IMG/VR virus record: IMGVR_UViG_2802429222_000003
From: a virus
Lineage: Duplodnaviria > Heunggongvirae > Uroviricota > Caudoviricetes
Direction: 5' to 3' (one strand)
DNA: 49,914 nt
The notes under the pieces are model-generated. The model did no database searches, was not told the origin of the DNA, and saw only the letters and a list, made by a program, of their open reading frames with translations. How positions within the stretch are numbered: the first letter of the stretch is position 1; the number at the start of each line of letters is the position of its first letter. This document shows positions 1-42,740 of the stretch, piece after piece. The translations under genes and the position numbers were made by a program.

Positions 1-263
1 ATGGCACCGGACATTATCCTGCTGCGTACCGGGATCGACGTGAGGGCTGTCAAACAGGGAGATAATGCGTGGCACAAATTACGGCTCAGCGTCATTACCG
101 CTTCTGAAATTCACAACGTGATAGCAAAACCCCGTTCAGGAAATAAGTAGCCTGACATGAGAAGTACATGCCGAGTTTTGACGAGATGGTGCCGGAGTTC
201 ATCGAAAAAATGGACGAGACATTGGCTGAAATTGGTTTTGTATTTGGGGAGCAATGGCGATGA
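1..263 (+). pseudogene. lambda-type exonuclease remnant: first 49 codons ending in a premature TAG, joined by an internal ~420-bp deletion to the last ~100 bp of exo
   Basis: 1..160 matches 46222..46381 and 161..263 matches 46801..46902 of the intact exo in this window (about 11 mismatches in the first 120 nt by eye); TAG at 148..150 where the intact copy has TGG. Confidence 0.7.
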
Positions 264-537
264 AGCATACTCACGATAATATCCGCGTAGGCGCGATCAC
301 TTTCGTCAAACCGATCGTTATCATGATAATTGAGGTAAAGAATGGCGCAAAGTAGCGTTGTGAAAATTTAAACGTCTCAACGCCTCCTTGAATTTCTCAC
401 CCCACATGAAAAAGAACCAAACAGCCCGCTTTGAGCGAAAAACGAACTATGATATTAGCAAGAAAGCATCACTGTTAATATTCGAACAATTAATGCTCAG
501 CTATTTCTCTATTATTTACAATCAGAAAGGACGTGTA

Positions 538-948
538 ATGGGTAAGGTTGATGAACTAAAGATGAAATATCCGGACGCGAATGCCTGGCAAATGGGCGAC
601 AGCCCTGAACTGGCTAACGAGCTTGCAGCACTTATAGAAAAAGGGATTAAAACGGCCTCCTGTGGCTCTTATGCCTCTTATCAGAAGGAAGAATTTGCCC
701 CAAGGATTGGGAGCTATAACATCATCCTTGACGGCCAGGATGTACCGGTATGCGTGACCAGGCTGGTGTCGATGCAACTGGTGTGTTTTTGTGATGTTAC
801 TGCCGAGTTAGCTCGCAAGGAAGGTGAAGGCGATTTGAGCCTTGAATATTGGCAGAGAGAGCATCAACGATTTTTCACCCAGGAAGGTCATTTTTCTGAA
901 GATATGGAGTTGATTATGGAAGAGTTTGAAGTTGTTGAGGTTCTGTAA
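538..948 (+). CDS. ASCH-domain-like small protein (137 aa)
   Basis: ATG at 538 preceded by AAAGGA; GxKT-type motif (EKGIKTASCGS); the 388 start in the ORF track gives a low-complexity extension with no ribosome-binding site. Confidence 0.45.
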   Translation: MGKVDELKMKYPDANAWQMGDSPELANELAALIEKGIKTASCGSYASYQKEEFAPRIGSYNIILDGQDVPVCVTRLVSMQLVCFCDVTAELARKEGEGDLSLEYWQREHQRFFTQEGHFSEDMELIMEEFEVVEVL

Positions 949-1211
949 GATGAGATAAACGAGCTGACGTTATATCAATTGGCATTTATAACAATGTCCG
1001 CACCTGACACATAGCGGATCTAAATATTAACGAGCGTCCACCAAATAGAGGAATGTCTAATAGGAACCTGGCAGTAGAACTGTCATCTGACTGACCAACC
1101 GACCCCAAACAACTAAGAGGTTTTGATAACTTATTTTGATAACCGTTAGCAAACTAACATAAAACAACGGGCGTGTTATACGCCCGTTACAATATTTAAC
1201 ACATGTAGTAA

Positions 1212-1376
1212 TTACATGTTCTTGATGATCGCATCACCAAACTCTGAACATTTCAGCAGCTTAGCGCCTTCCATCAGACGTTCGAAGTCATAGGTTACGG
1301 TCTTAGCGTTAATTGCGCCTTCCATACCTTTAACAATCAGGTCTGCGGCTTCAGTCCAGCCCATATGGCGCAGCAG
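1212..1376 (-). pseudogene. icd: isocitrate dehydrogenase 3' fragment (54 codons + stop), icdC-like att-site duplication
   Basis: minus-strand translation [54 protein letters not shown] matches the recalled Icd C-terminus; similarity stops abruptly at about 1376, upstream is AT-rich non-icd sequence. Confidence 0.75.
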
Positions 1377-1914
1377 TATATAAAAACATTAAGTTCAATT
1401 CATTGATATTTAATGATAAAAATTATTTTATTGTCTTTTTATTAGCCAAAATCAACTTTATTCAACCGTTTGATTTCATTGACGTTCGTTTTTATTTTGG
1501 GGAAAGGTTTTATCTACCATTTATATCAAAATTACAAGCCTACATTTTATTAACATCTCAATACATGTGAGGCCTTGCAGACCTTTGTGAGGCCTTATGT
1601 GTCTCAGTTTTGTCCCTCTTTTTTGTACTAAAAAACATAGTAATTGAGGATAAACCTCATGCTATTTTCGCTTATATGCCTCTAAAGGCATGGCACTTAA
1701 ATAGATAAAAGCACCACAAAATCATAAAAAAACCACACAGTAAAACCGCAATATGAAACAATAACAGATAATTAAACCAAAAACAGATAGCGCATTGTGA
1801 TAATCATTCAATACTAAACAAAATATAAACAGTGGAGCAATATGTAATTGACTCATTAAGTTAGATATAAAAAATACATATTCAATCATTAAAACGATTG
1901 AATGGAGAACTTTT

Positions 1915-2868
1915 ATGCGGGCGAAACTTCTGGGAATAGTCCTGACAACCCCTATTGCGATCAACTCTTTTGCTTCTACCGAGACTTTATCGTTTACTCC
2001 TGACAACATAAATGCGGACATTAGTCTTGGAACTCTGAGCGGAAAAACAAAAGAGCGTGTTTATCTAGCCGAAGAAGGAAGCCGAAAAGTCAGTCAACTT
2101 GACTGGAAATTCAATAACGCTGCAATTATTAAAGGTGCAATTAATTGGGATTTGATGCCTCAGATATCTATCGGGGCTGCTGGTTGGACAACACTCGGCA
2201 GCCGAGGTGGCAATATGGTCGATCAGGACTGGATGGATTCCAGTAACCCCGGAACCTGGACGGATGAAAGTAGACATCCTGATACACAACTCAATTATGC
2301 CAACGAATTTGATCTGAATATCAAAGGCTGGCTCCTCAACGAACCCAATTACCGCCTGGGACTCATGGCCGGATATCAGGAAAGCCGTTATAGCTTTACA
2401 GCCAGAGGTGGTTCCTATATCTACAGTTCTGAGGAGGGATTCAGAGATGATATCGGCTCCTTCCCGAATGGAGAAAGAGCAATCGGCTACAAACAACGTT
2501 TTAAAATGCCCTACATTGGCTTGACTGGAAGTTATCGTTATGAAGATTTTGAGCTAGGTGGCACATTTAAATACAGCGGCTGGGTGGAATCATCTGATAA
2601 CGATGAACACTATGACCCGGGAAAAAGAATCACTTATCGCAGTAAGGTCAAAGACCAAAATTACTATTCTGTTGCAGTCAATGCAGGTTATTACGTCACA
2701 CCTAACGCAAAAGTTTATGTTGAAGGCGCATGGAATCGGGTTACGAATAAAAAAGGTAATACTTCACTTTATGATCACAATAATAACACTTCAGACTACA
2801 GCAAAAATGGAGCAGGCATAGAAAACTATAACTTCATCACTACTGCTGGTCTTAAGTACACATTTTAA
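1915..2868 (+). CDS. ompT: outer membrane protease OmpT (omptin), 317 aa
   Basis: full-length match to recalled E. coli OmpT sequence (MRAKLLGIVLTTPIAI...AGLKYTF). Confidence 0.95.
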   Translation: MRAKLLGIVLTTPIAINSFASTETLSFTPDNINADISLGTLSGKTKERVYLAEEGSRKVSQLDWKFNNAAIIKGAINWDLMPQISIGAAGWTTLGSRGGNMVDQDWMDSSNPGTWTDESRHPDTQLNYANEFDLNIKGWLLNEPNYRLGLMAGYQESRYSFTARGGSYIYSSEEGFRDDIGSFPNGERAIGYKQRFKMPYIGLTGSYRYEDFELGGTFKYSGWVESSDNDEHYDPGKRITYRSKVKDQNYYSVAVNAGYYVTPNAKVYVEGAWNRVTNKKGNTSLYDHNNNTSDYSKNGAGIENYNFITTAGLKYTF

Positions 2869-3117
2869 GAACGCCAACTAAAATTTCCCCGAGGTGAAAA
2901 TCGCCCCGGGGAATAACTAGCCATTTCAATGTAACAATTAACCCTTAAAATAAACCCAGAAGGTTATTAACTAAATCACATAGAAAACCATCAATTATAG
3001 TGTGTATAAAATAGGCGACAGCAACCCAATTACAAATTAATGGTTCCAGAATATCACATCAAAAAACACGCTATATAATATTATAATTAACATGTAGACA
3101 ACTTGTAATAAATATTA

Positions 3118-3867
3118 TCAGTCAATTGTTTTGTTTATTCCATCTGTGACGCCGATTATTTTCTCAAAATAATGAGATGGCGTGACACCATAATAATCTT
3201 TAAATGCACATATGAAATATGAAGTACTGTTATAGCCACATTTCTGGGCTACGACATTGATAGAATAAGAGTTTGAAGTTATGAGTTTTTTTGCATACCT
3301 CATCCTAGTATCTCTCAATATTTCAGTAAATGACGTTCCTTCATCCCTTAATCTTTTTTTTATTAAACTTTCACTCGTATAAATCAATTCCGCAATATCT
3401 TTTAAATGCCATTGCCGCTCAATATTAAAACTGATTATTCCAGTAATTTTACAGGTAAATGTATTTATATTTGTTAGTATAAATGAATTTACACTTTCGC
3501 GTTTTTTGAACATGGCAAGTAAGGATATACATAGTCTTTCTTTTAACCAAAGGGAGTGTGAGTCTGCTATTTTAATCCCTTCAAACAGAGAAAAAACAAG
3601 CGATAATGGAGGTTCCTCTTCAGCAATATAGCCATTCTTATCAAGAGTAAATTTGCCAGGCAACTCATTATTCACGTCGATAAAAAAGGATAAACATGTT
3701 TTCTTATCTATATCAACAATTCTTAGTTTAGAGGGGCATACTGGTAACTCTCTTCTAATTTTGTCGCTTACAATAAACAATGAATTTTTTTTGAACGAGA
3801 TAACTCTCCTGTTTATAATTAAATCAAATGATTGACAGATGAAAACTACGGAGCAAACATAATCCAT
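3118..3867 (-). CDS. appY: AraC-family transcriptional activator AppY, 249 aa
   Basis: matches recalled AppY sequence and length; adjacent to ompT as in the K-12 DLP12 region; C-terminal AraC HTH. Confidence 0.9.
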
Positions 3868-4543
3868 CTTGCACCTATCATAAAATTAAAACAAGTTGAT
3901 AGTAGTCAAATAACAACCAATTAAATACACAATCATAATCAGGATGATGTGCATTTATATTTTTATACACAAAATTATAGTTTGCAAATTTTAATAAATT
4001 TCATTTAAGATTAAATTATTATATGTATATTGTTTTTTATTCTAACGTATTTCAAAGTTACATTTTTTCAACGATTACTATGCTTTTTATTAACATAAAC
4101 TCACTACAACGCACCTGAAACCTCTTGCTATATATATGTCAACCGTTTGAATTTAAAATAAAAAGAGTATCATTTTTACTTGCATTTCTTATCAAGTCAC
4201 ATTCAACAACAGTAAAAAAACATTATTAGAACCATTCAATTAACAAAAAACCAACATTCAGCTTGCTTAATTTTTCTTTATTAAACGATATTGAAAATCA
4301 ATTGATAAAATACATCTAAACAACCTTTTGGGGCGCAAAAGCATAACATCAAACAAACAAATAACACACCGAAAAAACTCACAATTAATAACCTATGATA
4401 TACATACTGTTTATTATGGTTGAATAAGCCACTCGATATCTGGTGCTACGGAAGTGTCCACACGGTTTAGCAACACCCGATACTTTTTCCTGGCTTCCAG
4501 CAACGGGGTTTCTTCCTCCGTTGCATATACAGCTCACCTTTTT

Positions 4544-4837
4544 TCACCCACGATTAACCAACAGCCAGACCAGCAGACACGCCACCACCGGCACAGCAAA
4601 ATCCATCAGGCTTGCCACATCCCAAGCTCGCGGATCAAAACCGCCCCACCACGGCATATTCATACGCTTGCCATGTCCGAACATTTCAATCCAGCGATAT
4701 TCTGCCTGGGTGTGTTCACGCGCAATGAAGAACGTACAACCAGCTATCGCTCCGTAAGCCCAGTTTCCGGTAAAAAGACCAACCAGTATCTGCGCAGCCA
4801 CAGCACAAAGTGCATGAAGTAAGGGGCTTATATCCAT
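4544..4837 (-). CDS. small membrane protein with two predicted transmembrane helices (97 aa)
   Basis: AGGAGG 7 nt upstream of ATG; hydrophobic N- and C-terminal segments; 12 nt after the preceding gene. Confidence 0.55.
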   Translation of the reverse strand: MDISPLLHALCAVAAQILVGLFTGNWAYGAIAGCTFFIAREHTQAEYRWIEMFGHGKRMNMPWWGGFDPRAWDVASLMDFAVPVVACLLVWLLVNRG

Positions 4838-4849
4838 TATTTCCTCCTT

Positions 4850-5128
4850 TCAGCTCCATTCCCGAAGCGGTGTTTCCAGCTCCACGACATAATCAGAGAA
4901 TACAGAAACATCAAACAAGTCATCAAGAATGCGAATGTTGACAAAATAACCGTCATTCCGGATACAGACAGGTTCTCCCTCTTCAGTTACCCCTGTTTCT
5001 GTGTAGGTGAAACCAATTTCATCGACTAACAGTTTATTCTGGAGGTCTTCATCTTCCTCCCAGTCAAGAGATGACAGGAAGGATTTAAACTCTCTGTTTC
5101 CAGGAAATTTCAAAGTTAAATCTTTCAT
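4850..5128 (-). CDS. small acidic protein coupled to the side tail fibre (92 aa); possible fibre assembly factor
   Basis: ATGA start/stop overlap with stf, GGAGG ribosome-binding site; no resemblance to classical Tfa. Confidence 0.5.
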   Translation of the reverse strand: MKDLTLKFPGNREFKSFLSSLDWEEDEDLQNKLLVDEIGFTYTETGVTEEGEPVCIRNDGYFVNIRILDDLFDVSVFSDYVVELETPLREWS

Positions 5129-7146
5129 ACTGCCTCCTTGATTTGCCTGTCATTTAATTCTTTAAACCAGACTCTGAAATTTCTGATGTGTCCAAACAAA
5201 TGACGCGTTCCTGCTGCGGTCTGCCCACCAAACCGGTACGATGTTGCTGTAACTCCAAATATTTTACCATTAAGGTTTGTTGTATAATTACCATTGCATA
5301 TTGCATTTACTGATAAATCAGATTTAGCTCTCACACCCACAATGAACCTTTCTCCATCTGAGGCAATTTGTGGCTGAACCATTCCTACGTTGGCGCTTAT
5401 CTTTCCTGTTGAAACAAACCCCAGCGATAAATAATTATCATCAATACTGTGCCCTCCAACATCAAATATCCTTGGCGCAACATTGGGCGGTGTACTCCAG
5501 TTCCTGCTTACTTCGCACAATACCGTAAAAGGCCGTGTTGACAGGTTATTCTGCGATGGGATAGTAACCACATCACTTGCGCGTGTTGTTGGCATTGTAG
5601 TTACAATAAATGACGATGCCGTATTGCCCAGTTCAATTTGCGGCGTCGTCATGGTTAATGTTGAGTCATCATAGAATGGCTCATTACTTATTTTATTTGT
5701 CATATAAAAAGCACAGTTAACGGTATCAATGTCCGTATTAGCTGTATAAGTGGCCTCATAGTAGGTCCACTCGCCCTGTTGTTCAGCTTTGGCTGTTATA
5801 AGGGATGTATTACCGCTTACTGTTGCGATCCGGGTATCCAGATCAAGATAAGAGTCAGCAGAGAAGGTATCTGTTCCACCAATAATAACTGAAACTCTTA
5901 ACCTGCATCGTGCTTTAGCGCCTTTAACCCGGCACGAAAAAGTGAAACATTCACCACTTGCCAGCGGGAATCTGTCTGCTGCAACCACACCATGCACAGT
6001 ATAGCCACCTGTTGTTCCCACTATACTTTCCGTGGGTGTCACCGTGGCATAATTGAACCCCTGTTTATCAGTGCCAAATGTTTTATTCAGTGCGGAATGA
6101 ACAGTCCATGAGTCTGGTTTATTTGAGTTCCTCAGATAATTTGTCCTCTGTCCTTCAATCAATAAGCCATCGCGCTCAAATCGCGGTTCATCAACTTCAG
6201 CAAGCTTGAGTTGGCCGGACTTATTAATATACGTTGCTGTTGAAGCACGTTTAAACTTAACAATCTTGTCGCCTGGCATTGTTATTTCATCGTCACCAAT
6301 AACAATCTTTTTATATGATGGCGAAAACCCCGTAATCATATCCAGTGTATCGTTAAACGGTATCCATACATCAGGCAGCGGCGGCACTATATTCGCATAG
6401 GGCTCTGCAGTCACTTCCGCTGCGGCTTCTGCGCGGTCTGCCGCCTTTTCTGCTCGTGTCGCTGCCGACAGAGCCTCATCCTTTTTCTGCCCGGCCTTTG
6501 TTGCGTCTGCTGCGGCCTCCCGCGCTTTTGTGGTGGCGATTCCGGCATTTTCAGCGGCTGACTCTGCATTACGGCGGGAAGCCTCTTCACTGTCTGCGGA
6601 GGCTTCCTCTGACGCACGGGCATTTGTCTCTGAATGTTCTGCCGCTGTTGCTGCATTTTGTGCGGCTGTTTTTGAAGAAGCTGCCGCTTTCGCGCTGTTA
6701 CCTGCATTCGTCTCTGATGTTTTCGCCGCGTTCCTGGACGATGCCGCTGCTGTTTCTGATTTCTTTGCTGCCGCTGCGCTCTGAGAGGCGGCTTCAGCGT
6801 TGCGTGCCGCCTCTTCCACCATCTTTTCAAAACGATACAGTGCCTCCGGACGAACATCATCTTCTGTTGCAGCGCCCAGAAAATCATTCAATGTCCCCGG
6901 CTTAGAATCCTCATACACGGTGATGGTCCCGGCATGTGAAGGCGGAAAACCTTCAACCAGCAGGGCGACGCTGTACTGGCCATACTCAACATCCATGCTG
7001 TAACGTCCGGCTTCATCCGGATTTTCTGAGGCCACCGTGTTCACCACAACTGTGGTGCTGTTACGTTTTGCTTTGAGCTGAATGGTGCAGTTCTGTATCG
7101 GTTTTCCTGCACCGTCTTTCAGCACACCTGAAATCTGTACTGCCAT
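5125..7146 (-). CDS. stf: side tail fibre protein, lambda Stf-like N-terminus with divergent distal domain
   Basis: N-terminus MAVQISGVLKDGAGKPIQNCTIQLKA... resembles lambda Stf; Ala/Ser/Glu-rich repeat region; ATG at 7146 with GGAG 6 nt upstream (track start 7152 is GTG). Confidence 0.8.
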   Translation of the reverse strand: MAVQISGVLKDGAGKPIQNCTIQLKAKRNSTTVVVNTVASENPDEAGRYSMDVEYGQYSVALLVEGFPPSHAGTITVYEDSKPGTLNDFLGAATEDDVRPEALYRFEKMVEEAARNAEAASQSAAAAKKSETAAASSRNAAKTSETNAGNSAKAAASSKTAAQNAATAAEHSETNARASEEASADSEEASRRNAESAAENAGIATTKAREAAADATKAGQKKDEALSAATRAEKAADRAEAAAEVTAEPYANIVPPLPDVWIPFNDTLDMITGFSPSYKKIVIGDDEITMPGDKIVKFKRASTATYINKSGQLKLAEVDEPRFERDGLLIEGQRTNYLRNSNKPDSWTVHSALNKTFGTDKQGFNYATVTPTESIVGTTGGYTVHGVVAADRFPLASGECFTFSCRVKGAKARCRLRVSVIIGGTDTFSADSYLDLDTRIATVSGNTSLITAKAEQQGEWTYYEATYTANTDIDTVNCAFYMTNKISNEPFYDDSTLTMTTPQIELGNTASSFIVTTMPTTRASDVVTIPSQNNLSTRPFTVLCEVSRNWSTPPNVAPRIFDVGGHSIDDNYLSLGFVSTGKISANVGMVQPQIASDGERFIVGVRAKSDLSVNAICNGNYTTNLNGKIFGVTATSYRFGGQTAAGTRHLFGHIRNFRVWFKELNDRQIKEAV

Positions 7147-7204
7147 ATTCACTCCACAAATAAAAAAGGCACCATTTCTGGTGCCCGAATTTGGGTTTTA
7201 AAAT

Positions 7205-10200
7205 TCAACTGATACTGATGCCGGCTGTTGATTTCTTCATCACGACAACAAGAAGGTCGCTGATACTGGTCGTTGGCGTCCAGTTATTTGCACCATATGA
7301 AGAAACATTGAAAGTCAGGGTGACATGGCCGTGTCCGGCAGGCATATCAATGACTGATGAAAATACCCTGCTGACATCCGTCGCGGGTTGCTGAAAGATT
7401 TCCTGTCCGTTCTTCAGCACCTGCAGCTTACAGGTTGAATACCAGTATGACTGTTGGTTGTTGCTGTTGAAGTTTTCATGCTTACCACCGCGAAACAGAA
7501 CGGGGGGGATTACTATCTGACGGTCAAAAGCCTGGTCATCGTACACCGTGACCGTTATTGTACCGCTGGCATAACTGCTATTTCTCGGAAAGGCTTTTCC
7601 CACCGTTTTAACAATATCGCCTTCAATCTGGTTGGCTGACAGTTTTCCCAGAATCCGGCAGTTCTGATTAATCGTGACATTGTTGAGCGTCCCGGAGTTC
7701 GCGTTCACGTTACCGCTGATATCCGCATTTTTCGCCGTCAGCCGCCCGTCCGGTGTCAGGGAAAATGCCGGAGGATTACCGCCGCTGGTAATGGTGGGAG
7801 CCGTCAGATATTTCAGGAACACTTCATTCATAAATATCTGATCGCCCTGACCAACAAACATCGGCTTTGTATTGCCATTCGCAGGATTAATCATCGCAAT
7901 CCTGTCCGCCGCCAGCAGCACCTGACTCTGCATACCGTCAGGGGTATTCTCAATACCGGCACCAATACCCGCGATATAAAGGCGTCCGTCCTGCATCTGC
8001 TGCAGCTTCACAGCCCACATGCTGTTCAGGTTATTATTTGTATCAACCTGAACCTTCTGTATCTGCTGGATCGCTGCACTCTGGTCTTCCAGTTTCTTAT
8101 TGACGGTCTGCGTGATTTCATTGCTGACATCCGTAATGGACGTCCTGATTTCAGCCAGGTCAGGCGCAAGCTGACCGTTATCAATCTGCGTCCACAACTC
8201 CTGAGCCAGATGGGTTTTCCCTATCTCTCCTTTGAAAAAATCCAGATAGCCGGATGCATCATCACTCGGCTGGCCAACAGCCTCCACAAATGCCGATTTG
8301 CCAACGGTGTTCACACTGCGAATGTAAAAATAATAATCATGGCCCGGTTTGATATTGATACTAGCGGCTATCCAGTACAGCGCCGTACCAAGATAACGCG
8401 CGCTGGCTTCAACCTGCCTGATATCCGCAATCCGCTTTTCCGAGAACCAGAACTCAAACTGTACCGTCGGATCATAAACGGCAAGATGCGGCGTTGCGGT
8501 TATCTGAAAATAGCCCGGCGTCAGCTCAATCCGCGATGGCGCTGCCGGTGCGGCAATCCGGAACGATACCGACGCCGGATCCCCCTGCTGCCCCCACGCA
8601 TTTACCGCCCGGACTGTCAGCCTGTAGTTCCCCAGCGCCAGTTGCCTGAAGCGGTATGTGGTTTCCGTCGTCCTGGCCGTGCTGACCAGCCGCTCACTGC
8701 CGTCATCCGCTGCCACGGTCAGGCGAAGCATAAAGCTCCCCCCCTTCACCACCTTCGGCGTGTCCCAGCGCGCCAGCACCTGGTATTCCCCGCTGTCTGC
8801 GGTGACTTCTGCAGTCAGGTGCTGCACCGCGGGCGGCGTGACACCGTTCACCGTTCCGCTCTGGTCGCCGTCAAAGTACGCCCCGTTATCCACGATGGCT
8901 TCTTTCTCCGGTACATGCTGCACGGCAGTGATGGCATACGTGCCGTCATCGTTCTCACGGATACTCACACAGCGGAACAGGCGCTGGCGCAGCATCGGCA
9001 GCTTCAGCCCCCACACGCTGTATCCGGCAACGCCGTCAGGAACACGGCTCACTTTCACCTTCACACCGTCGGTGACGGACTGGACCTCCACGCTGACCGG
9101 ATTCCCCTGCCCGTCAACCAGGCTTATCAGCGTGGTGCCGGAGGATGGCAGCGTGATTTCACGGTCGAGCGTCAGCGTCCGGGTCTGGCTGTTCACCGCC
9201 AGCACACGCCCACCGATGCTGATACCGGCATAGTCATCATCGCAGATTTCAATGACATCCCCCGGTACATGGCGAAGCCCTTCAGCACCCACGCTGAAGT
9301 CCACGGTCTGCGTTTCCAGCAGCTCCGTTTTAATCAGCCACAGCCCGGCGCGGTGTGCCTGCCCCCGACTGGTACAGCCAAAGGCATCCATCTTCGTGAC
9401 GTTACGGCCGTAACGGGCAATGGCCTGCGTATCCTCCACGAGCTCTGTCGCCGTCTCCCAGCCGTTGTTCGGGTCAATCCAGTTCACCTCAACGGCATTA
9501 TGGCGGTCCTTCAGGGCGCTGAAGCTGTAGCGGAACGGCGCGCCATCATCCGGCATCACCACATTACTGCGGTTATAGGTCCACACCTTATCTGATGGTC
9601 GGTCCTGCACGAACGTCAGCGTCTGCCCGTTCCATACCGGCATACAGCGCATCGCCGAGCAGAAATCACTGAGCACATCCCACGCCTTGCGCTGTGTGGT
9701 CAGGTACGCATTACAGGTGATGCGCGGCTCCGTGCCGCCAAAGCCGTCCGGCACTGACTGGTCGCAGTACTGGCCGATGACATACAGCGCCCATTTATCC
9801 ACATCCGCCGCACCAAGACGTTTCCCCATGCCGTAGCGCGGATGGGTCAGCATATCCCACAGACACCAGGCCATGTTGTTGCTGTATGCCGGTTTAAACG
9901 TTCCGTCCCAGATACCGCTGTATTGCCGCGTCTGCGGGTTATAATTCGACGGCACCTGCAGAATACGCCCGCGCAGATGATAATTACGGCTCACCTGCTG
10001 ACTGCCGAACTGCTCCGAGTCCACCTGCACGCCGACCAGTGCCGTGTTCGGGTAGCACTGTTTCACATCGATAATTTCGGTGTATGACGACCAGAGCGTT
10101 TTGTTCTGCAGCTGGTCTGTGGTGCTGTCCGGCGTCATCCTGCGCATCCGGATACTGAACGGGCGCGGCGGCAGGTTATCCACCACCACCGAGGCCAGAT

Positions 10201-10687
10201 ACTGTGAAGTGGTTTTACCCTTAATGGTGATGTCTTTTTCCGTCACCCAGCCACCGTTACGTTGTATCTGAACCAGCAGGCGGACTTCCGATGGATTCCT
10301 GTCCCCCTTTGAGGTGGTTTCCACCAGTGCCTGCACGCCGAAAGTAAAACGCAGACGGTCAATGTTTGCCGACGTGATGGTCCGGGTGATCGGCGTGTCA
10401 TATTTCACTTCTGTACCGAGCACCGTCTCGGAGCCGGAGGATTCAAATCCCTCCGGCGGTGTCTGCTCCTGCTCACCGGCCCGGAACACCACCGTGACGC
10501 CGGATATATTGGTATTCCCCTCACTGTCCAGCACCGGCGTACTGTTCAGCAGCACGCTTTTTAATCCATCCACCGGACCTTCAACCGGCCCTTCGCTGAT
10601 GGCATCGATCACACTCAGCAGCTGCGTGGACTTCAGGTTGTCCTTCGCTTCGCGCGGGATATGCCCCTTACTGCTGCCTTTACCCAT
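7205..10687 (-). CDS. J: tail tip / host specificity protein J (1160 aa)
   Basis: lambda J-like over most of its length; last ~150 residues divergent from recalled lambda J. Confidence 0.93.
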
Positions 10688-10747
10688 TCGTCATGCTCCA
10701 TAAACGATAAAACCGCCCGGAGGCGGTTTCACATAAAACATTTTGCA

Positions 10748-11419
10748 TCAGCGACCAATCACCACAATCTGACCACCATCCCCTTCGTCTGCCGTGCTGA
10801 TCTCCTGAGAAACCACGCGTGACCCCACGCTCATTTCACCGTACAGAACCGGCAGAACATTGCCCAGGGCAACCATGTTATCCAGTGAGGAGAAATAGGT
10901 GTTCTGTTTGCCGTTATCCGTTGTCTGTGTACGGGGAGTTCTGGCTTTCGGTGCCAGCATCTGCGCCACACCACCGAGCACCATACTGGCACCGAGAGAA
11001 AACAAGATGCCGGTCATACCACCGGCCCCAATGGCTGCCCCCCATGCTGCAAGGGTGGCTCCGGCGGTAAAGAATGATCCGGCAATGGCGGCAGCCCCCA
11101 GGACAATCTGGAATACGCCACCTGACTTGGCCCCTGCGACTCTGGGAACAATATGAATCACAGCGCCATCAGGCAGAGTCTCATGTAACTGCGCCGTTAA
11201 CCCGGACGTGCTGACGTCCCGCCCGGCAATCCGTACCTGATACCAGCCGTCGCTCAGTTTCTGACGAAACACCGGGAGCTGTGTGGCCAGTGCGCGGATG
11301 GCTTCAGCCCCCGTTTTCACACGAAGGTCGATGCGGCGGCCAAATCGTTGTAAATCCCCGTAAAGGCAGATGCGTGCCATGCCCGGTGACGCCAGAGGGA
11401 GTGTGTGCGTCGCTGCCAT
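10748..11419 (-). CDS. I: tail tip assembly protein I
   Basis: 223 aa, lambda gene order and similarity. Confidence 0.9.
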   Translation of the reverse strand: MAATHTLPLASPGMARICLYGDLQRFGRRIDLRVKTGAEAIRALATQLPVFRQKLSDGWYQVRIAGRDVSTSGLTAQLHETLPDGAVIHIVPRVAGAKSGGVFQIVLGAAAIAGSFFTAGATLAAWGAAIGAGGMTGILFSLGASMVLGGVAQMLAPKARTPRTQTTDNGKQNTYFSSLDNMVALGNVLPVLYGEMSVGSRVVSQEISTADEGDGGQIVVIGR

Positions 11420-30004: not shown

Positions 30005-30745
30005 TTACATCATGTCTTTTTCTAAAAAAAATCTTGATGAATATTGATGGGGAGGAACACCAAAATATCTTCTGAAAACACTTACAAAATATGACGTGTT
30101 TTCATAACCGCATATCTCAGCAACTTTTCCAACAGAATATAAATTGTAGCTTAATAACCTTTCCGCCATCACCATTCGCTCTTCAAGAATTAATTTACTA
30201 AATGATAAGCCTTCGTGCTTTAATTTTCTTTTTAACAGACTTTCACTCAGATACAGTCTTGAAGATATATCACAAAGTCTCCATGTTGCAGATATATCCG
30301 TGTGAATAATAGCCTTAACTTTACTTCCTAAACTATTAAGACATCCAAATAAAAAACTTTGCACTATTTTCTCTGAAGATAAGATAGCAAGACATGCAAG
30401 TGATATTTGATTTCTAACAAAATCCACAGTTCTGCCATCACAATTCAAGCATGCAATCAAGTTCTTTAACAATGAAAAATCTTCACATTCCACCATCAAG
30501 TATGCCGGATAAAACCTTCTTACAGAAAAAGGTGAGAGTGTGTTGCTTTTAAAGAAATCATTAACTGTTTTCTCTTCAACATCTACGATCATTACATGAT
30601 CTATATTTGATGAAAAAAAATCTTTTAAATTGTAATCAATGAGAACAGCACTTCCTTTTTTAAACAAAATATCTTCTTTACCAATTCGGACATCAAACGA
30701 GTTCAACACCAAAATGATAGAACATATGTATGGCATATTATCCAC
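30005..30745 (-). CDS. AraC-family regulator, AppY/EnvY-like paralog (246 aa)
   Basis: about 40-45% identity by eye to AppY at 3118..3867 across both the N-terminal and HTH regions. Confidence 0.8.
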   Translation of the reverse strand: MDNMPYICSIILVLNSFDVRIGKEDILFKKGSAVLIDYNLKDFFSSNIDHVMIVDVEEKTVNDFFKSNTLSPFSVRRFYPAYLMVECEDFSLLKNLIACLNCDGRTVDFVRNQISLACLAILSSEKIVQSFLFGCLNSLGSKVKAIIHTDISATWRLCDISSRLYLSESLLKRKLKHEGLSFSKLILEERMVMAERLLSYNLYSVGKVAEICGYENTSYFVSVFRRYFGVPPHQYSSRFFLEKDMM

Positions 30746-31087
30746 CTGATATCATTGGGGTTACACCAGGTAAGTATAGGTGGAAAATCAATATTCGCCA
30801 GTTCAACAATAAGGAAAATCTCATTGCATCACAAGTATAAAATTATGTATTTAACTCACAAAGACAAATTATTAAACCAATCTGTTATATTATATATAGC
30901 TGCGTGGAATCATAATATCATATATTTTGACTGGCATGTTTACCAAATTTAAGTTGCATCTCAATGGTTTCTTCAGCGTAAACAGAGTTTTTATACAAAC
31001 TGACACTCTGGGTATCATAGTGTAGTTTTTACGATTGTAAATATCCTGTATGCAGGAACTCATCCTTTTGGATGATATCGCATACAA

Positions 31088-32047
31088 TTAATTTACCATC
31101 AGTCTTAGAGCCAGTTCGTCCGGATAGGGATCGAAGTAATTCTGTGTAAGCAAGTAATCATTAGGATACTCACCCAGATAATGCTTCAGCAGAGTCAACG
31201 GCGCAAGAAGAGGTAATGTGCCAGAACGATAGTTAAGTATAACCTCGCTCAACTCTTTACGCTGGCGTGTACTTAAGTAGTTACTAAAATACCCCTGTAT
31301 ATGCATCAGCACATTCGTGTGATTTTTACGTGATGCAGGTTTTCTGAGAATCGCCATCAGCTTATCACGATACACCTCAAAGTATGATTCAAGATCCGCC
31401 CACTCGTGTATTGCAGCCACAAATGGTCCCATATCTTTATAGCCTGTCTGACTATGCGCCAACAACTGAAGCTTATAACGACTATGAAAAGCCAATAACT
31501 CTCTTCTTGATAATTTCTCCTTGTAAAGGTGATTGAGCTCATGCAAAGCAAAAACTCTTTCAACAAAATTCTCACGAAGCACTGGATCATGTAATCGCCC
31601 ATCCTCTTCAACCGGTAGCCAGGAAAACTTTTCCATCAAAGTGCTCGTAAATAGTCCCACTCCATCTTTACGACCTCGATTACCATTTTCATCATAGACA
31701 CGCACGCGCTCCATGCCACAGCTGGGAGATTTAGCACAAACCACAAACCCCGATACATCCTTTAATTTGTCCATATAAGAACGACTAAACTCTGTCATTC
31801 TCTCTGTCACATCCTCATTCTGGTCGTGGCTGAAACACATCCGTATATTTCCTTGCGTCGAGCGCACAAGACGTAGAGCAGGACGCGGAACTGGCAGCCC
31901 TATAGCCATTTCCGGACATACTGGTCTGAATGTTACCCATTCCACTAATTTGTCCATTAAAAAGTCAGCTCTTTTGTGACCACCATCAAAACGAACAGCA
32001 GAACCGGCCAAACAACCGCTGATTCCAATCACAGGTTTTTTTATCAT
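31088..32047 (-). CDS. DUF523 (TudS-like) / DUF1722 (YbgA-like) fusion protein (319 aa)
   Basis: motifs GISGCLAG..VRFDGGHK, VCPEMAIGLPVPR, KSPSCG consistent with the Cys-containing DUF523 core; C-terminal half resembles YbgA-type domain. Confidence 0.6.
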   Translation of the reverse strand: MIKKPVIGISGCLAGSAVRFDGGHKRADFLMDKLVEWVTFRPVCPEMAIGLPVPRPALRLVRSTQGNIRMCFSHDQNEDVTERMTEFSRSYMDKLKDVSGFVVCAKSPSCGMERVRVYDENGNRGRKDGVGLFTSTLMEKFSWLPVEEDGRLHDPVLRENFVERVFALHELNHLYKEKLSRRELLAFHSRYKLQLLAHSQTGYKDMGPFVAAIHEWADLESYFEVYRDKLMAILRKPASRKNHTNVLMHIQGYFSNYLSTRQRKELSEVILNYRSGTLPLLAPLTLLKHYLGEYPNDYLLTQNYFDPYPDELALRLMVN

Positions 32048-32239
32048 ATCCTCCCCCTTGACTAATTCATTAACACATAAACTGTGTAGTGCACGGAATA
32101 AATTGCCTTTCTGGCGTCATCACTGACAATTTTTCTGTTATGGACTATTCCTAATATAGTATGAAAGTTCTTTAAGTGATCGGTCGTAATCATCTATCTT
32201 TCATACTTACTCTCAACTATCAAAAGTACAGGATTTATT

Positions 32240-32764
32240 ATGAAGTTATGGCCTGTGTTGACTGGCATTGCGCTCTCTTTCACTCTTATAGCATGTAAGG
32301 CCCCGACACCACCTAAAGGTGTGCAGCCGATTACAAATTTTGACGCCAACCGCTACCTCGGAAAATGGTATGAAATAGCTCGCCTCGAGAACCGGTTCGA
32401 ACGTGGTCTGGAACAGGTCAGCGCTACTTATGGAAAACGGAACGACGGAGGGATTCGTGTACTTAACCGTGGATACGATCCAACGAAAAATAAATGGAGC
32501 GAGAGCGAAGGTAAAGCATACTTTACTGGAGATACTAAAACTGCAGCGTTGAAGGTTTCGTTTTTTGGCCCCTTCTATGGTGGCTATAATGTAATCAAAC
32601 TGGATGATGAGTATAAGTATGCTCTTGTCAGTGGTCCGAACAGAGAATACCTATGGATTCTGGCAAGGACCTCAACTATTCCAGATAAAGTAAAAGCAGA
32701 CTATGTGCGAACCGCTCAAAAGTTGGGATTCAATGTCAATGAATTATTATGGGTTAAACAATAA
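32240..32764 (+). CDS. bacterial lipocalin (Blc-like) lipoprotein (174 aa)
   Basis: signal peptide with lipobox LIAC; roughly 60% identity by eye to recalled E. coli Blc (NFDANRYLGKWYEIARLENRFERGLE...KVSFFGPFYGGYNVI...YLWILARTSTI). Confidence 0.85.
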   Translation: MKLWPVLTGIALSFTLIACKAPTPPKGVQPITNFDANRYLGKWYEIARLENRFERGLEQVSATYGKRNDGGIRVLNRGYDPTKNKWSESEGKAYFTGDTKTAALKVSFFGPFYGGYNVIKLDDEYKYALVSGPNREYLWILARTSTIPDKVKADYVRTAQKLGFNVNELLWVKQ

Positions 32765-32792
32765 AATCCCTACCCGAAATGATACTTATTAG

Positions 32793-32819
32793 AAAAAAAC
32801 CAGCCTTTGGGGAGGCTGG
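32793..32819 (-). terminator. intrinsic terminator downstream of Q (candidate tR' of the late operon)
   Basis: minus-strand hairpin CCAGCCTCCCCAAAGGCTGG followed by TTTTTTT. Confidence 0.7.
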
Positions 32820-32919
32820 CTAAATCAGGAAACAAGCTGTTATATGATAATAACTACGTTGCGATTCCAACATTTAAAATGTTAGACTAATGACAATCAG
32901 ACAGCAACTTTTCCTTTAA

Positions 32920-33312
32920 TTATTTCGAACAATCAGCATCCATCTCCAATCGGAGATCCAACACCATCAGCATACCCTCCACTACGCCCTCAGCTTTCTG
33001 GAGCATCCTGCCAACCCAACAATCAGATCGCCCATGCTTACGTGCAAGCGCCATAAAAGTCATGCCGCCGACATAATAGTCCACCAATAAATCATGCAAA
33101 TCGCTGTTGTTCTTTTTCAGACGGGCCATGCACCCGCAAATGATCATCGCGTCATCGTCACAACATTGCGGGCGAGATTTTACTTTTGAAGGAATTAATC
33201 CCTTAAAACCGGCGGCAATGGACGACCAGGTCACATCTTCATGATTATTAGCCGCCCACGCTCCCCAACGCTCAAGAACCATCTGAATATCACGCATCAA
33301 CTTACTCCACAA
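32920..33312 (-). CDS. Q: late antiterminator Q (phage 82 / DLP12 QuuD-like)
   Basis: resembles recalled QuuD ([22 protein letters not shown]...[16 protein letters not shown]); position upstream of tR' and lysis genes; start may be an internal Met. Confidence 0.75.
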
Positions 33313-33519
33313 AACTCAGACCAGAACGCCAATTACAAGCAAAAATCAACAAAACAGTATTAGTTGATTGTTATCTCTGACTTCATACTCCTGCTCCTGT
33401 CAGTGTTTTGGCGTAATTCTTCAGTATTCGGTAATCGGTCAAAACAGAGCCGGGGAAACGATATAAGCGCAGACGCCCCCAGCGGTGGCGAAGAAGTTCT
33501 GCCATATTAAACTCAAACA

Positions 33520-33882
33520 TCATTCATTCCCCATTTCGGTGATGGTCAGTTCCAGCCTCCCACCTTTGGTAACAGGCATCTTCACAACGCGGTAATCAAC
33601 GACCTGAGCATCATCCAGCCAGAAACCTGCTTTAGTGAGTGCGTCAAAAGCGGCTTTTTGCAGATTATCCAGGTCACGGCTACGGCGATCCGGCATGTGG
33701 CACTCAATGCGGATTTTCACAGGCATAGCCAGGCCGATATCCAGCATTGCGTTTTTAATGATTCGGGCGACGTTATCGCGGTATGCCTGCCCCTCTGCAC
33801 TGACGTGCGTGCGCCCGCGATTATGGCGGTAATAGCGATTATTGCTCGGAGGCCAGGGTAATGTGATACTGTAGGTATTCAC
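33520..33882 (-). CDS. rusA: Holliday junction resolvase RusA (120 aa)
   Basis: matches recalled RusA ([23 protein letters not shown]...TITEMGNE). Confidence 0.93.
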
Positions 33883-34169
33883 GCCTTAATAACCCCCTCT
33901 TTCAGCCAGATAACCTGTGTTCTCGCCATACCTTCCAGCGCGCATTCTTTTGCATATGCAGCATCGACAAAATGTGTGCGGCGGTCGATTTCGTCGTGGC
34001 AGGCAGAACATGCAATGGTGGCAATCAGGTCTGGCGGTTTGATACCGGTACCGCACAATCCAGCCAGCCGGATATGTGCCAGTACAGACGTTTCAGAATT
34101 GCCATTACATACGCCAGGGATTCTTACCTGGCATTCCCGACCACGCGCTGCTTTTCTCAAATCAGCCAT
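33879..34169 (-). CDS. DUF1364 Cys-rich nin-region protein (YbcO-like, 96 aa from the internal Met)
   Basis: CxxxxxxC...CSACH pattern; ATGA-type overlap with rusA; DLP12-like gene order. Confidence 0.6.
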
Positions 34170-34331
34170 GATTCCTCCTTGCTGCCAGTCGCAACCATTT
34201 TTTATCAACCAGGCTAGCGGTATATCCGAGCAGTGTTGGTATTTCGGATGGCTTCAGCTCAGGCTTACGCTTACGACGATTTGATACTCTGTAGATGTGT
34301 CCGTTCATGACACGAATAAGCGGTGTAGCCA

Positions 34332-34787
34332 TTACGCCTCCTGCTTGTCGCGGAGCTGCTGGAACTCGCAGCTCTGCGGAATAGTCAGGTGGCAGCCAAT
34401 ATTCACCGCCCAGGCTTCAACCTTACACAGGAAGACATACATCTCTCCGGTATCAAGATCGGAGGTATGGCGTAACGACTGGATAGTGGTGATATCACCG
34501 GTTACGACATCAACCAGGTCTTTGGTTTCATAACCGAGATATGTGTGTTTGAGAGCATCTTTTACCCAAGCTGGAGTGGCGAACGTTTTACCCCTGCTGA
34601 TGAGGTGTTCACTGATTTCGCTGTACCACATGTGGCTGAGTGCATTCTGGGAAAGACTGCGTTTCTCACGCCACGGTTTAAGCACCATGCGAAAGCATTT
34701 GCCCTCCTCCAGATAAGGCTGGATCTGCCGACCGATAGCGGTGAAGTTGCCGCGATGTAATTTGATGCCGTCTTGTGAGAGGTTCAC
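34332..34787 (-). CDS. nin-region protein, YbcN-like (151 aa)
   Basis: length and position match DLP12 ybcN; no motif recognised. Confidence 0.55.
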
Positions 34788-35001
34788 GCTTCACCTCCGC
34801 AGAGGTCAAACGCTAGATGCAAAGAATTGCAGGTGCATTTCTGCATCTGTGAAGGGAGAAGAGAGTTTGGATTGTATGTGCGCATAAACGTCCCCGTTTA
34901 GCGCAGAAGTCACCGGAGTTGTTCAGGCTCCGGTGACATAATTATGCCGTGTTGATTTCCCAAAATCAAAATCGATAGAATTGCTCCTTCTTAAAACACT
35001 T

Positions 35002-35799
35002 TTACTCTCTGGAAGCTTTTCTTATCTCTCTTGGTGTTATATTAAAACGATTATGAAATCTTTCAGTAAAACGAGAAGGACACTTATAACCATTTTCTCT
35101 GGCAATCTCGCTTATAGGTTTTACCGTCGTTTGTATAGCAGACAACGCATTATTTAACCTCACATCGTCCAGTATACTTTGGAAACTTACCCCCTCGCTT
35201 GCTAGACGGCGATGTAATGTAGAAACAGAAATGTAGAGATATCGAGCAACCTTGTTTGCTGTCCATTTTGTGCCGGGTTCGGATAGCAGCAGGTTATAAC
35301 AACGACTTATCAATGATTGTTTACTATATGATAAAAGTAAATGATTAACATGATTCACTCCTAACGAAAGTAGAACGCCCATTGCTAAGTGCTCCTGAAT
35401 TTTAGTTGAGAAGCCTCGGGAAACAGATGTTTTTAGTTGCTCCCAACAATATATTAACTCAGGATTCTGAGGTAAAAAGAAACTTGTTTTGTTACGTATT
35501 TGATCAGTTACCGTATAAAGTTTTTGGAAACTCTCAATTAAATCAATGGGTAAGTAAAGCATTTCTGCAAGATAAAGCCCTGCTTCAGGATAATTCTCAA
35601 TATAAAATTCATAACCACAAGGAAATAATATTATTTGATTATTATCAACAGTTAAAGTATGCGTCTCCCAATTGATAACTTTCTTTCCCTGACGGATACG
35701 ACACAAAGCTGGCATAAGAGGCTTAACCCTATGAATCTCATGATGTTTATGCATCCGTATTTCTTCGATCTTTAAGTTAGTCTTACCTCTTGCCAGCAT
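35002..35799 (-). CDS. AraC-family regulator, YbcM-like (265 aa)
   Basis: C-terminal AraC HTH; AT-rich cargo block. Confidence 0.8.
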
Positions 35800-35808
35800 A
35801 CTCTCACC

Positions 35809-36360
35809 CTACTTTATCTCATAAACTGGTGTTATCTCAGCGGTTGCGATTTTATTAGCATTAAGCATATAACCAACTAACGCTCCGCTGGAGTTAGAAT
35901 CTACAGGAATCTTTTCAGTTTTTAGAGCCCATACTTTAAACTGGTAATGATGTGGTTTATCTCCTTTAGGAGGACATGCGCCACCAAACCCAGCATAGCC
36001 AAAATCATTTCGGCCTTGAACAGCACCAGTCGGCAGTTTTGTTCCATCACGTCTCCCTGCATCAACGGGCAAATATGTTATTGTTGCTGGAATATTAACA
36101 ACAGTCCAATGCCACCAACCACTGCCTGTAGGTGCATCTGGATCATATACAGTTACGGCAAAGCTTTTGGTACCTTCAGGAACACCAGACCAGGTTAATG
36201 AGGGCGATGTATTACCACCTTCACACCCAAATCCAGAAAAGACATGAGACGTTGTAAGTTGCTCTCCTGTTTTTATTTCATTACTAGTGACCTGAAATGC
36301 TGCAGCCTGCGCAGAAAATGTTATGAATGCCAATACAGTTGAAACGATAAGTGTTTTCAT
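35809..36360 (-). CDS. PEBP-family periplasmic protein, YbcL-like (183 aa)
   Basis: signal peptide; PEBP signatures DPDAP and HHY. Confidence 0.85.
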   Translation of the reverse strand: MKTLIVSTVLAFITFSAQAAAFQVTSNEIKTGEQLTTSHVFSGFGCEGGNTSPSLTWSGVPEGTKSFAVTVYDPDAPTGSGWWHWTVVNIPATITYLPVDAGRRDGTKLPTGAVQGRNDFGYAGFGGACPPKGDKPHHYQFKVWALKTEKIPVDSNSSGALVGYMLNANKIATAEITPVYEIK

Positions 36361-36577
36361 AAAAACCTCTTTGTTATGACCTATCGTTATTTTATTTGAT
36401 ATTCCTTTATCTCATTATGCATAAAGGCGCAATGTTTATGCAAAAGCAATCACAATTGTACCCCCAACCCAATTATTTGCCACAATATACACAAAGCACA
36501 TTGATACTATCTAAAAACTCTGCTTTATTATTAGTAATACCTACGAAAGTCGGTGTTATTTTTTAACCTACCATTCA

Positions 36578-36625
36578 AAATACGTGACATACACCATTTT
36601 GCTCATAATAATTTGTCACGTATTT
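36578..36625. repeat. perfect 12-bp inverted repeat AAATACGTGACA / TGTCACGTATTT with 24-bp spacer
   Basis: read directly at 36578..36589 and 36614..36625, between the recombinase and PEBP genes. Confidence 0.85.
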
Positions 36626-36824
36626 TCAGTATTTGAATCTGCGACCAAGAGTTCTCACCTAACAAATGATTAAGATTGTATAGCTCATTTACTACCCCAA
36701 TACAGCCGTACAAAACTCGCTTGTGGGAGCAAACAAAGTAATTACCCATTAAGTTTCGTCAAAGATAATTAATTCTGTCTTGCACTTTATCACCATAGCA
36801 TAACTTAAAATCCGAGATCATTAT

Positions 36825-38351: not shown

Positions 38352-38605
38352 GGTGACACCTGCTAACGTATGCTTTTATAAACCTTAGTGGTGGGATATA
38401 ATTTTTGTTTAATTTTTATTTAAAAAGACAATTAAGGTCACATTATCTTGAATATACAACAATAATCGTATTGCAATTTTCTTACGCCATAATCTTGAAA
38501 GCACAAAAGAATACATAAAAAATAAAGACATTAACAAAAAGCATAAAACGAGGCTCATATAAATATAAGAGCCTCCATATTTTAGTCGTTTAGAAACAAA
38601 TTATT

Positions 38606-38938
38606 TTAATGTGGTGTGCTTCGTGACAATAAATTAATAACCAACACACCGGCACAAATCAACATCATGCCTATAATGGCTGGCAGGTCCAGCCGTTGGC
38701 CGAAAAGTCCCCATGACAGTAAGCTAATCAGGACAATACCGACTCCTGACCAGATAGCATAAGCAATCCCTGTAGGAATATAAGCCAGCGTCTGAGCTAA
38801 TAACCAGAATGATGCACAATAACAAATAATTGTACCAACAGATGGCCATAACCGTGTAAAACCTTCTGAAAACTTCATTAAGGTTGTACCAATGACCTCT
38901 GCAAGTATTGCACCACCAAGATAAATATAAGGGTTCAT
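38606..38938 (-). CDS. emrE: small multidrug resistance efflux transporter EmrE (110 aa)
   Basis: from the internal Met the product MNPYIYLGGAILAEVIGTTLMKFSEGF... matches recalled EmrE; track ORF has an 18-codon extension. Confidence 0.9.
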   Translation of the reverse strand: MNPYIYLGGAILAEVIGTTLMKFSEGFTRLWPSVGTIICYCASFWLLAQTLAYIPTGIAYAIWSGVGIVLISLLSWGLFGQRLDLPAIIGMMLICAGVLVINLLSRSTPH

Positions 38939-39005
38939 AGCATATTCTTTCCTGTTCAAACTGGAGAGAATTGTACTACAGTTTGAACTCAACTCACCTG
39001 TTTCA

Positions 39006-39308
39006 TCATTGTGTACCCATTGATGTTCTTTTATATACCCTCAATACCCGTTTCATCGCGGCACTCTGGCGACACTCCTTAAAAATCAGATTCGTGCTCA
39101 CCTTTCCTTCCCGTTCTTCTCTGGTAGCGAACCGGTAATACACCGTTCGCCAGACCTTACCATCAACGACCAGGATTCCTGCCCGCGCCATTTTAGCCGC
39201 AGCCTGATTTATGCTGGTTACGGTTGCGCCTGTTACCGCGGCAACGTCCTGTGCACAGAAGCTCTTATGCGTCCCCAGGTAATGAATAATTGCCTCTTTG
39301 CCCGTCAT
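39006..39308 (-). CDS. ren: Ren exclusion protein
   Basis: MTGKEAIIHYLGTH... similar to recalled lambda Ren. Confidence 0.85.
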   Translation of the reverse strand: MTGKEAIIHYLGTHKSFCAQDVAAVTGATVTSINQAAAKMARAGILVVDGKVWRTVYYRFATREEREGKVSTNLIFKECRQSAAMKRVLRVYKRTSMGTQ

Positions 39309-41564: not shown

Positions 41565-41588
41565 TGCCTTATCAGTTCACGCCGCAGA

Positions 41589-42620: not shown

Positions 42621-42740
42621 AAATGTAATTCGCGATGGCTTAATTGAGCATGGACTGATAGATAGTTTTTTGAAAGCCCATAAAGGCAATGTTACAGAAT
42701 TTTTTGATACATTACGATAGATTGAGTTGAGGTAATATCC

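Follow-up and report, generated by a model that had tools for sequence, protein, structure and literature searches.

Probable phage 21-type integration into icd of a lambda-like prophage carrying ompT and appY, beside a putative older e14-type remnant

The icd gene is used for integration by phage 21 and by the element e14 of E. coli K-12, each of which supplies a 3' end of its own to the gene and leaves the displaced 3' end as a fragment at the far junction (PMC6379469, PMC12803456; K-12 annotation; M61865.1, OL657228.1). The phage 21 record describes three arm subsites with the consensus YYTTCCCCAAAA next to int, followed by a terminator and an icd pseudogene. The prophage NC-SV of E. coli NC101 is likewise lambdoid and is located at the phage 21 site in icd (PMC12803456). 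The genes ompT and appY are carried by most E. coli genomes in the defective prophage DLP12 at argU. OmpT is an outer-membrane protease linked to antimicrobial-peptide resistance.

The DNA analysed here was a stretch of 49,914 nucleotides (the window). A first-pass annotation of it had proposed that a fragment of the icd 3' end marks an attachment junction and that ompT and appY are the terminal cargo of an icd-integrated prophage. The results indicate with high confidence that the window contains an almost complete lambda-like prophage which entered icd by phage 21-type integration with ompT and appY aboard, and that what is probably an older e14-type remnant lies at its left. The features of the locus are summarized in Table 1.

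Table 1. Coordinates of the features in the window, with strand and the evidence for each
Feature	Position	Strand	Evidence or remark
Older lambdoid remnant: exo with internal deletion and DUF1317 fragment	1-307	+	93.9% in two pieces
ASCH-domain gene, probably carried by the old remnant; no further gene between it and the resident icd 3' end	538-948	+	Pfam ASCH
Putative e14-type attachment arm of the older element	1004-1163		Two TTTTGATAAC repeats, 1121-1130 and 1134-1143
icd intrinsic terminator hairpin, in the segment common to attP and attB	1164-1190	-	11-pair stem, then T run
7-nt inverted repeat	1201-1219		Straddles the icd stop; probably incidental
Displaced resident icd 3' end, outer prophage junction	1212-1375	-	Alignment, variable-site table, translation
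Probable crossover (core) interval CCAGCCCATATGGCGCAGCA	1356-1375		Resident alleles to 1355, homology end at 1375, single lysogen
Phage-21-type attP arm, cargo side	1376-1616		One arm-type site TTTTGGGGAA at 1495-1504
Prophage as a whole	1376-49914		Continues 277 nt past the window with arm sites, a terminator and the icd 3' end brought by the phage
ompT-appY cargo block, lambda b-region position	1557-4524		98.8% over 2968 nt to the K-12 DLP12 end
18-pair hairpin with T tail, at the joint of phage-21 att and DLP12-type cargo	1563-1602	+	-24.4 kcal/mol, z = -5.0
ompT	1915-2868	+	Pfam Omptin; OmpT 315/317 identical to K-12
appY	3118-3867	-	AppY 249/249 identical to K-12
Lambda-type late region: tail fibre, J, tape measure, capsid, portal, terminase, lysis	4544-29601	-	Pfam
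AraC-family regulator	30005-30745		
2-thiouracil desulfurase/DUF1722 protein	31088-32047		
Lipocalin (Blc-like)	32240-32764		
DLP12-like early-right block: Q, rusA, ybcN/O, ybcM, ybcL, ybcK recombinase, emrE, ren	32938-39616	-	
Excisionase gene overlapping the int start	48546-48782	+	Gene call in a 99.98%-identical relative; Pfam Exc (weak)
Tyrosine integrase, phage 21 type	48772-49914	+	Stop codon ends on the final base of the window

The left junction was analysed by translation and by alignment with icd copies from several genomes. Translation of the minus strand at 1212-1376 gave the C-terminus of Icd, in which the first codon alone differs from the Icd of a near-identical genome. The alignment revealed that the icd homology breaks at 1375/1376, in agreement with the abrupt end at about 1376 that had been noticed in the first-pass annotation. 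At the break point the window reads GGCGCAGCA joined to GTATATAAAA, as against GGCGCAGCA joined to TCATCTC in intact icd. The homology starts in the terminator region 3' of the stop codon and ends with CATATGGCGCAGCA at 1375, and icdC of K-12 is cut at the identical base. The homologous segment is 164 nt long, corresponding to 53 codons, the stop and 2 nt; the fragment of 54 codons described earlier is therefore real as a fragment, while its codon count has to be lowered to 53 and the stop, its first codon being a hybrid. The fragment is identical at 217 of 219 nt to the 3' end of icd in a relative without the insert (E ~1e-109), which excludes chance. The identity of the fragment is 99.1-96.3% to the icd 3' ends of insert-free relatives and 94.5% to the phage-supplied 3' end. 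The reading of 1212-1375 as the scar left by a lambda-like virus with a phage 21 integrase inserting into icd is supported by these results. An 11-nt direct repeat, GCGCCTTCCAT, is also present in the coding sequence of the icd fragment, its copies at 1264-1274 and 1315-1325 being 51 nt apart, and has probably arisen by chance.

The integrase at the opposite end begins with MAARPR and had been likened to the e14/21 type. This assignment was borne out and narrowed, as the full 380-residue protein has 99.2% identity to Int of phage 21 (M61865.1, OL657228.1) and 60% identity to e14 IntE. A protein identical to it carries the Pfam domains Arm-DNA-bind_1 and Phage_integrase. The identical 380-residue integrase occurs elsewhere with icd as the next gene in all 10 places shown, and the same is seen in E. 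coli 317. The gene corresponding to the overlapping reading frame before int is annotated as an excisionase both in E. coli 317 and in phage 21. The earlier placing of int beyond the right edge was mistaken, since the reading frame lies inside the window and ends exactly at the edge.

The sequence past 49914 was taken from near-identical relatives, namely CP099351.1 and one metagenome (ENA) scaffold. In both of them 113 nt separate the int stop from an intact and convergent icd of 416 codons, beyond which lie rluE-nudJ-mnmA. The 113-nt spacer contains three copies of TTTTGGGGAA and a terminator hairpin, and the icd surrogate past the window edge measures 164 nt. The junction sequences of CP099351.1 and the scaffold are identical and their host flanks differ at 1 of 3591 positions; the host flank of this inner junction is 99.4-99.5% identical to insert-free genomes and about 94% identical to E. 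coli. Extension past the right edge, as had been suggested beforehand, therefore led directly from int into an intact icd with a phage-supplied 3' end. A tRNA-linked locus, the alternative considered at that stage, was excluded, because no tRNA gene was found in a search across the window; icd adjoins int in the relatives.

The attP was reconstructed by joining the inner-junction sequence to the window from 1376 onward. It is continuously collinear with the attP of phage 21 over 641 nt at 93.8%, ending at window position 1616. The arm-type motif TTTTGGGGAA is present in the 49.9-kb window in a single copy, against 0.17 expected, and in three copies beside int at the other junction. Taken with the genomes described next, the locus shows the integrase, the overlapping excisionase, the attP layout, an icd kept intact, a displaced fragment and an unoccupied attB, which are the features of the phage-21-type module.

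Related genomes with and without the insert were collected by a look-up of the ASCH protein (538-948), which returned eight related chromosomal loci, six of them insert-free and two with the insert. In the six insert-free loci the same left flank, consisting of the truncated exo, DUF1317, the ASCH gene, the arm and the terminator, runs into an intact icd of 416 codons, so that the ASCH gene stands directly upstream of it; beyond icd follow rluE, nudJ, mnmA, hflD, purB and phoPQ. In the two loci with the insert icd is cut at the same base as in the window, and ompT, appY and the tail genes come next. The genes ompT and appY and all the phage genes are jointly absent at this site from the insert-free genomes. 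This comparison with prophage-free strains, which the first-pass annotation had called for, supports the reading of the icd fragment as an att junction. The icd-fragment arrangement recurs in independent assemblies (CP099351.1, JAEHKN010000002.1, the ENA scaffold and E. coli 582). No match was obtained when a collection of species-representative genomes was scanned for the exact pattern of 40 nt from the left flank.

The relation of the window to its nearest relatives is very close. Over window 1-10948 CP099351.1 shows a single mismatch; in the remainder of the overlaps compared it has two more mismatches, an IS3 insertion and a 78-nt deletion. The metagenome scaffold matches window 32741-49914 without indels and with three mismatches. 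According to PMC12299893, CP099351.1 belongs to E. marmotae, and so does CP025979 among the insert-free genomes. Judged by these matches, the window is part of an Escherichia marmotae chromosome, very closely related to CP099351.1 and the scaffold. The IS3-family insertion of CP099351.1 lies in the ybcK-like serine recombinase gene, which is uninterrupted in the window at 38259-38266, and its O gene is without 78 nt that are complete in the window version (40487-40564); some copies of the prophage are therefore decaying.

The crossover interval was derived from the polymorphisms between the resident and the phage copies of icd. The variable-site table showed that the window fragment has the resident alleles A at 1233, C at 1260 and A at 1305 along with the resident arm, whereas all the inner junctions and the attP of phage 21 have G, T and G at these positions, plus the phage arm. 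The last informative site in the window fragment itself is 1305. In one lysogen among the related genomes the fragment retains the resident-only TAACAC (1338-1355) up to 1355. As resident alleles reach 1355 and the homology on the phage side stops at 1375, the exchange most probably occurred between 1356 and 1375. The alignment with the phage-supplied 3' end that had been recommended earlier thereby defined the shared segment and also placed the crossover within it. The phage-supplied and the displaced icd 3' ends have 12 nucleotide differences in 218 nt and encode the same residues, so that integration is silent for the enzyme.

A palindrome had been reported just past the icd stop codon. It does exist as an inverted repeat with perfect arms of 7 nt (1201-1207 and 1213-1219) and a 5-nt spacer; its position needs correction, as it straddles the stop codon (1212-1214), and it does not appear to be a functional part of att. 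About six of its positions are variable among the icd copies (1205-1210 and 1218 are listed in the variable-site table), and inverted repeats of 7 nt abound in this AT-rich region (11 pairs in 600 nt). The repeat was rejected as an att or terminator element because it spans the stop, one half is constrained by coding and the other half is variable, and the real terminator is situated at 1164-1190; by its sequence it is probably incidental. The hairpin at 1164-1190 has perfect arms of 9 nt and is conserved in the resident, e14-type and phage-21-type copies, and its counterpart is annotated as "terminator" in the phage 21 record. The hairpin, which has the anatomy of a terminator, and not the 1201-1219 repeat is taken to be the icd terminator.

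The DNA to the left of the fragment is the remnant of an older prophage and not host DNA, which refines the earlier interpretation. The reading frame at 1-150 matches the N-terminus of a lambda-type Exo, and 1-307 as a whole matches regions named lambda exonuclease / DUF1317 / bet. This remnant is found in all eight related genomes, whether the prophage is present or not. The stretch 1004-1211 shows about 75% identity to the arm 3' of icd in E. coli with e14-like elements and aligns with the e14 arm of K-12. The TTTTGATAAC repeats occupy the place of the P1-P3 arm sites of phage 21 and are confined to the flank outside the prophage (1121-1143). No integrase was found in the older remnant, and no far icd fragment of the older element was found within 9.4 kb to the left in the sequence of a relative. 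The arm sequence, and that only, suggests an e14-type origin of the remnant. The simplest reading would be that an older e14-type element, surviving as the remnant at 1-1211, provided the 3' end seen in the fragment, so that the displaced 3' end would itself be of e14-type phage origin. The icd site was then probably used at least twice in this lineage, by an e14-type element and afterwards by the phage-21-type prophage; the order of these events is deduced from the arrangement of the sequences. The best E. coli match of the ASCH gene belongs to a P2-like prophage at an unrelated locus and is uninformative on this junction, and the gene gave no match in PADLOC, nor did the recombinase gene. 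Further left, a relative carries about 6 kb of decayed DLP12-like sequence with ybcL- and emrE-like pieces of ~90% identity, and the host genes beyond the decayed stretch are not the neighbours of icd in E. coli; the difference from the E. coli order suggests a past rearrangement.

The cargo genes ompT and appY sit between the tail-fibre genes and the attP arm, inside both icd junctions, and are missing together with the whole insert in the insert-free genomes, so their description as terminal cargo of an icd-integrated prophage can be retained. Of 5426 complete E. coli genomes, 1465 (about 27%) have the junction of icd fragment and arm. The two E. coli examples inspected have sitABCD next to it, as has phage 21. 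The arm is joined directly to ompT in strain 582 only, strain 7CC having an insertion there; in E. coli 582 iraM is followed by the icd fragment, ompT, appY and the tail genes. Arm and ompT are contiguous in none of the records of the phage collection. The ompT-appY block is carried by the isolated phages Kati (PP925833.1) and PhiR68_2 (PV340576.1), and ompT without appY by 2G7b, ev243, PhiR49_1 and others. Phage carriage of ompT is hence already on record, and what is rare is its pairing with the icd module. The presence of sitABCD or ompT-appY at one position points to cargo swapping. As the cargo has 99-100% protein identity while the host flank has ~94% DNA identity, the comparison also points to a recent phage-borne transfer of ompT and appY between Escherichia species.

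The body of the prophage follows the lambda plan. From core to core it measures about 48,816 bp, compared with 48,502 bp for the lambda genome. The lambda gene order was recovered as Nu1/A, portal, protease, capsid, tape measure, J, Q, O/P, a CI-type repressor, Gam/Bet/Exo and Xis/Int, the gene calls being taken in part from near-identical relatives (one of them 99.98% identical). Full-length Pfam matches were obtained for the tail-fibre N-terminal domain, GpJ, TMP_2, capsid E, the S49 protease, the lambda portal, GpA and Nu1, and for Q too. Isolated phages with the same integrase, such as PhiR47_2 and 1H12, match 86-88% of the late region at 96-97% identity. The early-right block matches DLP12 of K-12 over 6282 nt at 98.7% and 399 nt at 96.2%, with Pfam matches to Q and a serine recombinase; the collinearity with DLP12 comprises eight blocks of 83-99% identity, about 11 kb of which is at 96-99%. 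The prophage may still be able to excise and form particles.

Two further regions of the body deserve description. Between Q and the lysis genes, at the place of nmpC in DLP12, 30005-32764 holds genes that are not phage-like (Table 1). Between the CI-type repressor gene and kil, in a rexAB-like position, two overlapping genes are found on the plus strand at 42741-44373. One encodes a HipA_2-like kinase of 254 residues (Pfam 29.7 bits) with a weak PADLOC match to PDC-M66A (E = 2e-6), and the other a protein of 293 residues without a family match. The pair is also present in lambdoid prophages at other integration sites and may be a defence or exclusion pair.

The integration module and the cargo meet at a mosaic joint. 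The homology to phage 21 stops at 1616 and that to DLP12 starts at 1557, and a hairpin stretch of ~55-60 nt is common to phage 21, the sit-carrying prophages, DLP12 and the window with few positions differing, its flanks switching partner on either side. On this pattern the stretch around 1563-1602 looks like a module-boundary sequence. The hairpin is terminator-like and is on the int-sense strand, about 190-225 nt across the attP core from int. Such a placement across attP from int recalls sib/tI of lambda. The hairpin could act in a similar way, lowering the expression of int from the excised and not from the integrated genome; in the att region of lambda, no hairpin was picked up by a simple scan for terminators. 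A more tentative proposal, possible and on balance doubtful, is that the prophage represents a still-viable, complete relative of DLP12 in which the argU module was swapped for the icd module at 1563-1602. If true, a viable DLP12 relative would be ferrying E. coli-type ompT and appY into Escherichia marmotae.

The mechanism that would account for the locus is as follows. The attP would bear about 164 nt of surrogate icd 3' coding sequence along with the icd terminator, and Int would mediate a crossover at the promoter-proximal edge of the shared segment, presumably within the interval given above. The phage copy would thus be fused to the body of icd, leaving the enzyme intact with no amino-acid change, and the resident 3' end would be moved to the far junction, which accounts for the fragment 1212-1375. 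Everything between the junctions, ompT and appY included, would form one unit of packageable size. The displaced 3' end would have come earlier from an e14-type element that has since decayed, leaving exo, DUF1317, the ASCH gene and the arm. The prophage itself would be a mosaic of a phage-21 int/xis/att module and a DLP12-like body and cargo, with one joint at 1563-1602.

Other explanations of the same arrangement were weighed against this mechanism. The fragment could be the native chromosomal icd 3' end lying beside host DNA, a single integration event being then sufficient, and in E. coli 582 and K-12 the fragment does adjoin iraM. The flank in the window, however, is made up of the truncated exo, DUF1317, the ASCH gene and a TTTTGATAAC arm matching e14-type arms, and not of the iraM side, and 14 of 218 positions differ from the iraM-side fragment of E. 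coli 582; a native end is very improbable. A misassembly, or else homologous recombination or rearrangement between prophages, could also have produced the duplication of the icd 3' end without an integrase. In favour of such an origin are the history of prophage decay at the locus and the left synteny, which differs from E. coli and suggests past rearrangements, but the break point is identical to the base with 1465 E. coli phage-21-type junctions and with the attP of phage 21, and the recurrence of the arrangement across independent assemblies speaks against it too. This origin is the least credible of those considered.

The extent of the unit bears on a further possibility, that ompT and appY form a separate older island beside the prophage and outside the att-bounded unit. 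The usual residence of ompT-appY in the defective DLP12 at argU in E. coli would fit such an island, as would the start of the cargo block at the mosaic joint (1557-1616). The insert-free genomes, on the other side, are without ompT/appY and the phage genes together, the phage-21 arm is unbroken from the crossover into the upstream region of ompT, the block lies within both icd junctions, and the same block is carried by Kati and PhiR68_2. A separate island is accordingly extremely improbable, slightly more so than a native icd end and slightly less so than a rearrangement. The preferred reading, in which ompT and appY lie inside a unit of ~48.8 kb, follows from the six relatives that are without the whole insert and have an intact icd at the site.

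The boundaries of the 48.8-kb prophage are settled by this analysis, and ompT and the regulator appY are recognised as mobile phage cargo in this genome. The locus would provide a natural example of the serial use of one attachment site, in which the displaced icd 3' end is itself phage-derived. Phage-derived 3' ends of icd matter for sequence typing and phylogeny based on this gene. A specific mosaic joint is also documented at which integration and cargo modules (sitABCD as against ompT-appY) were exchanged. Of interest are the rarity of the module combination, the successive use of one site and the passage of cargo between species; the accepted mechanism is unchanged and, apart from the rare module combination, this is well-understood biology.

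Compared with the known systems, the prophage combines features of several of them. With e14 of K-12 it shares the identical icd site, at which e14 leaves icdC, and the older remnant here has an e14-type arm. It differs from e14, a defective element of 15 kb with other cargo, in the integrase, which is not of the IntE type (60% identity), and in the arm repeats, TTTTGGGGAA in place of the e14-type TTTTGATAAC. The sit-carrying icd prophages of E. coli are lambdoid, occupy the phage 21 site in icd and share the junction; unlike the present prophage, both inspected examples have sitABCD beside it. The closest likeness in the integration module is to phage 21 (M61865.1, OL657228.1), with which the prophage has in common Int (99.2%), xis overlapping int, an attP with three arm-type sites by int, the icd terminator and an icd surrogate of ~165 nt, the displaced icd fragment after integration, and a cargo placed between attP and the tail genes. 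Phage 21, in contrast, carries sitABCD where ompT-appY is found here, the homology on the cargo side ending at 1616, and the early-right and Q regions here are DLP12-like. DLP12 shares blocks of 96-99% identity that include the exo fragment, ren, emrE-ybcK-ybcL-ybcM-ybcN-ninE-ybcO-rusA-Q, nohD and the distal tfaX-appY-ompT. It is however integrated at argU with IntD, contains IS elements and is without head and tail genes, whereas a full late region and the phage-21 int/att are present here; the homology stops 65 nt before the end of DLP12, the att arms differ, and the argU/IntD mode of integration does not apply to this prophage. Kati, PhiR68_2 and other ompT phages have the ompT(-appY) block at 97-98.7% identity at the att-proximal end, and differ in that the match starts at window 1557 and does not take in the phage-21-type arm. 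As these isolated phages carry the same block, the ompT(-appY) cargo is one that travels in viable phages.
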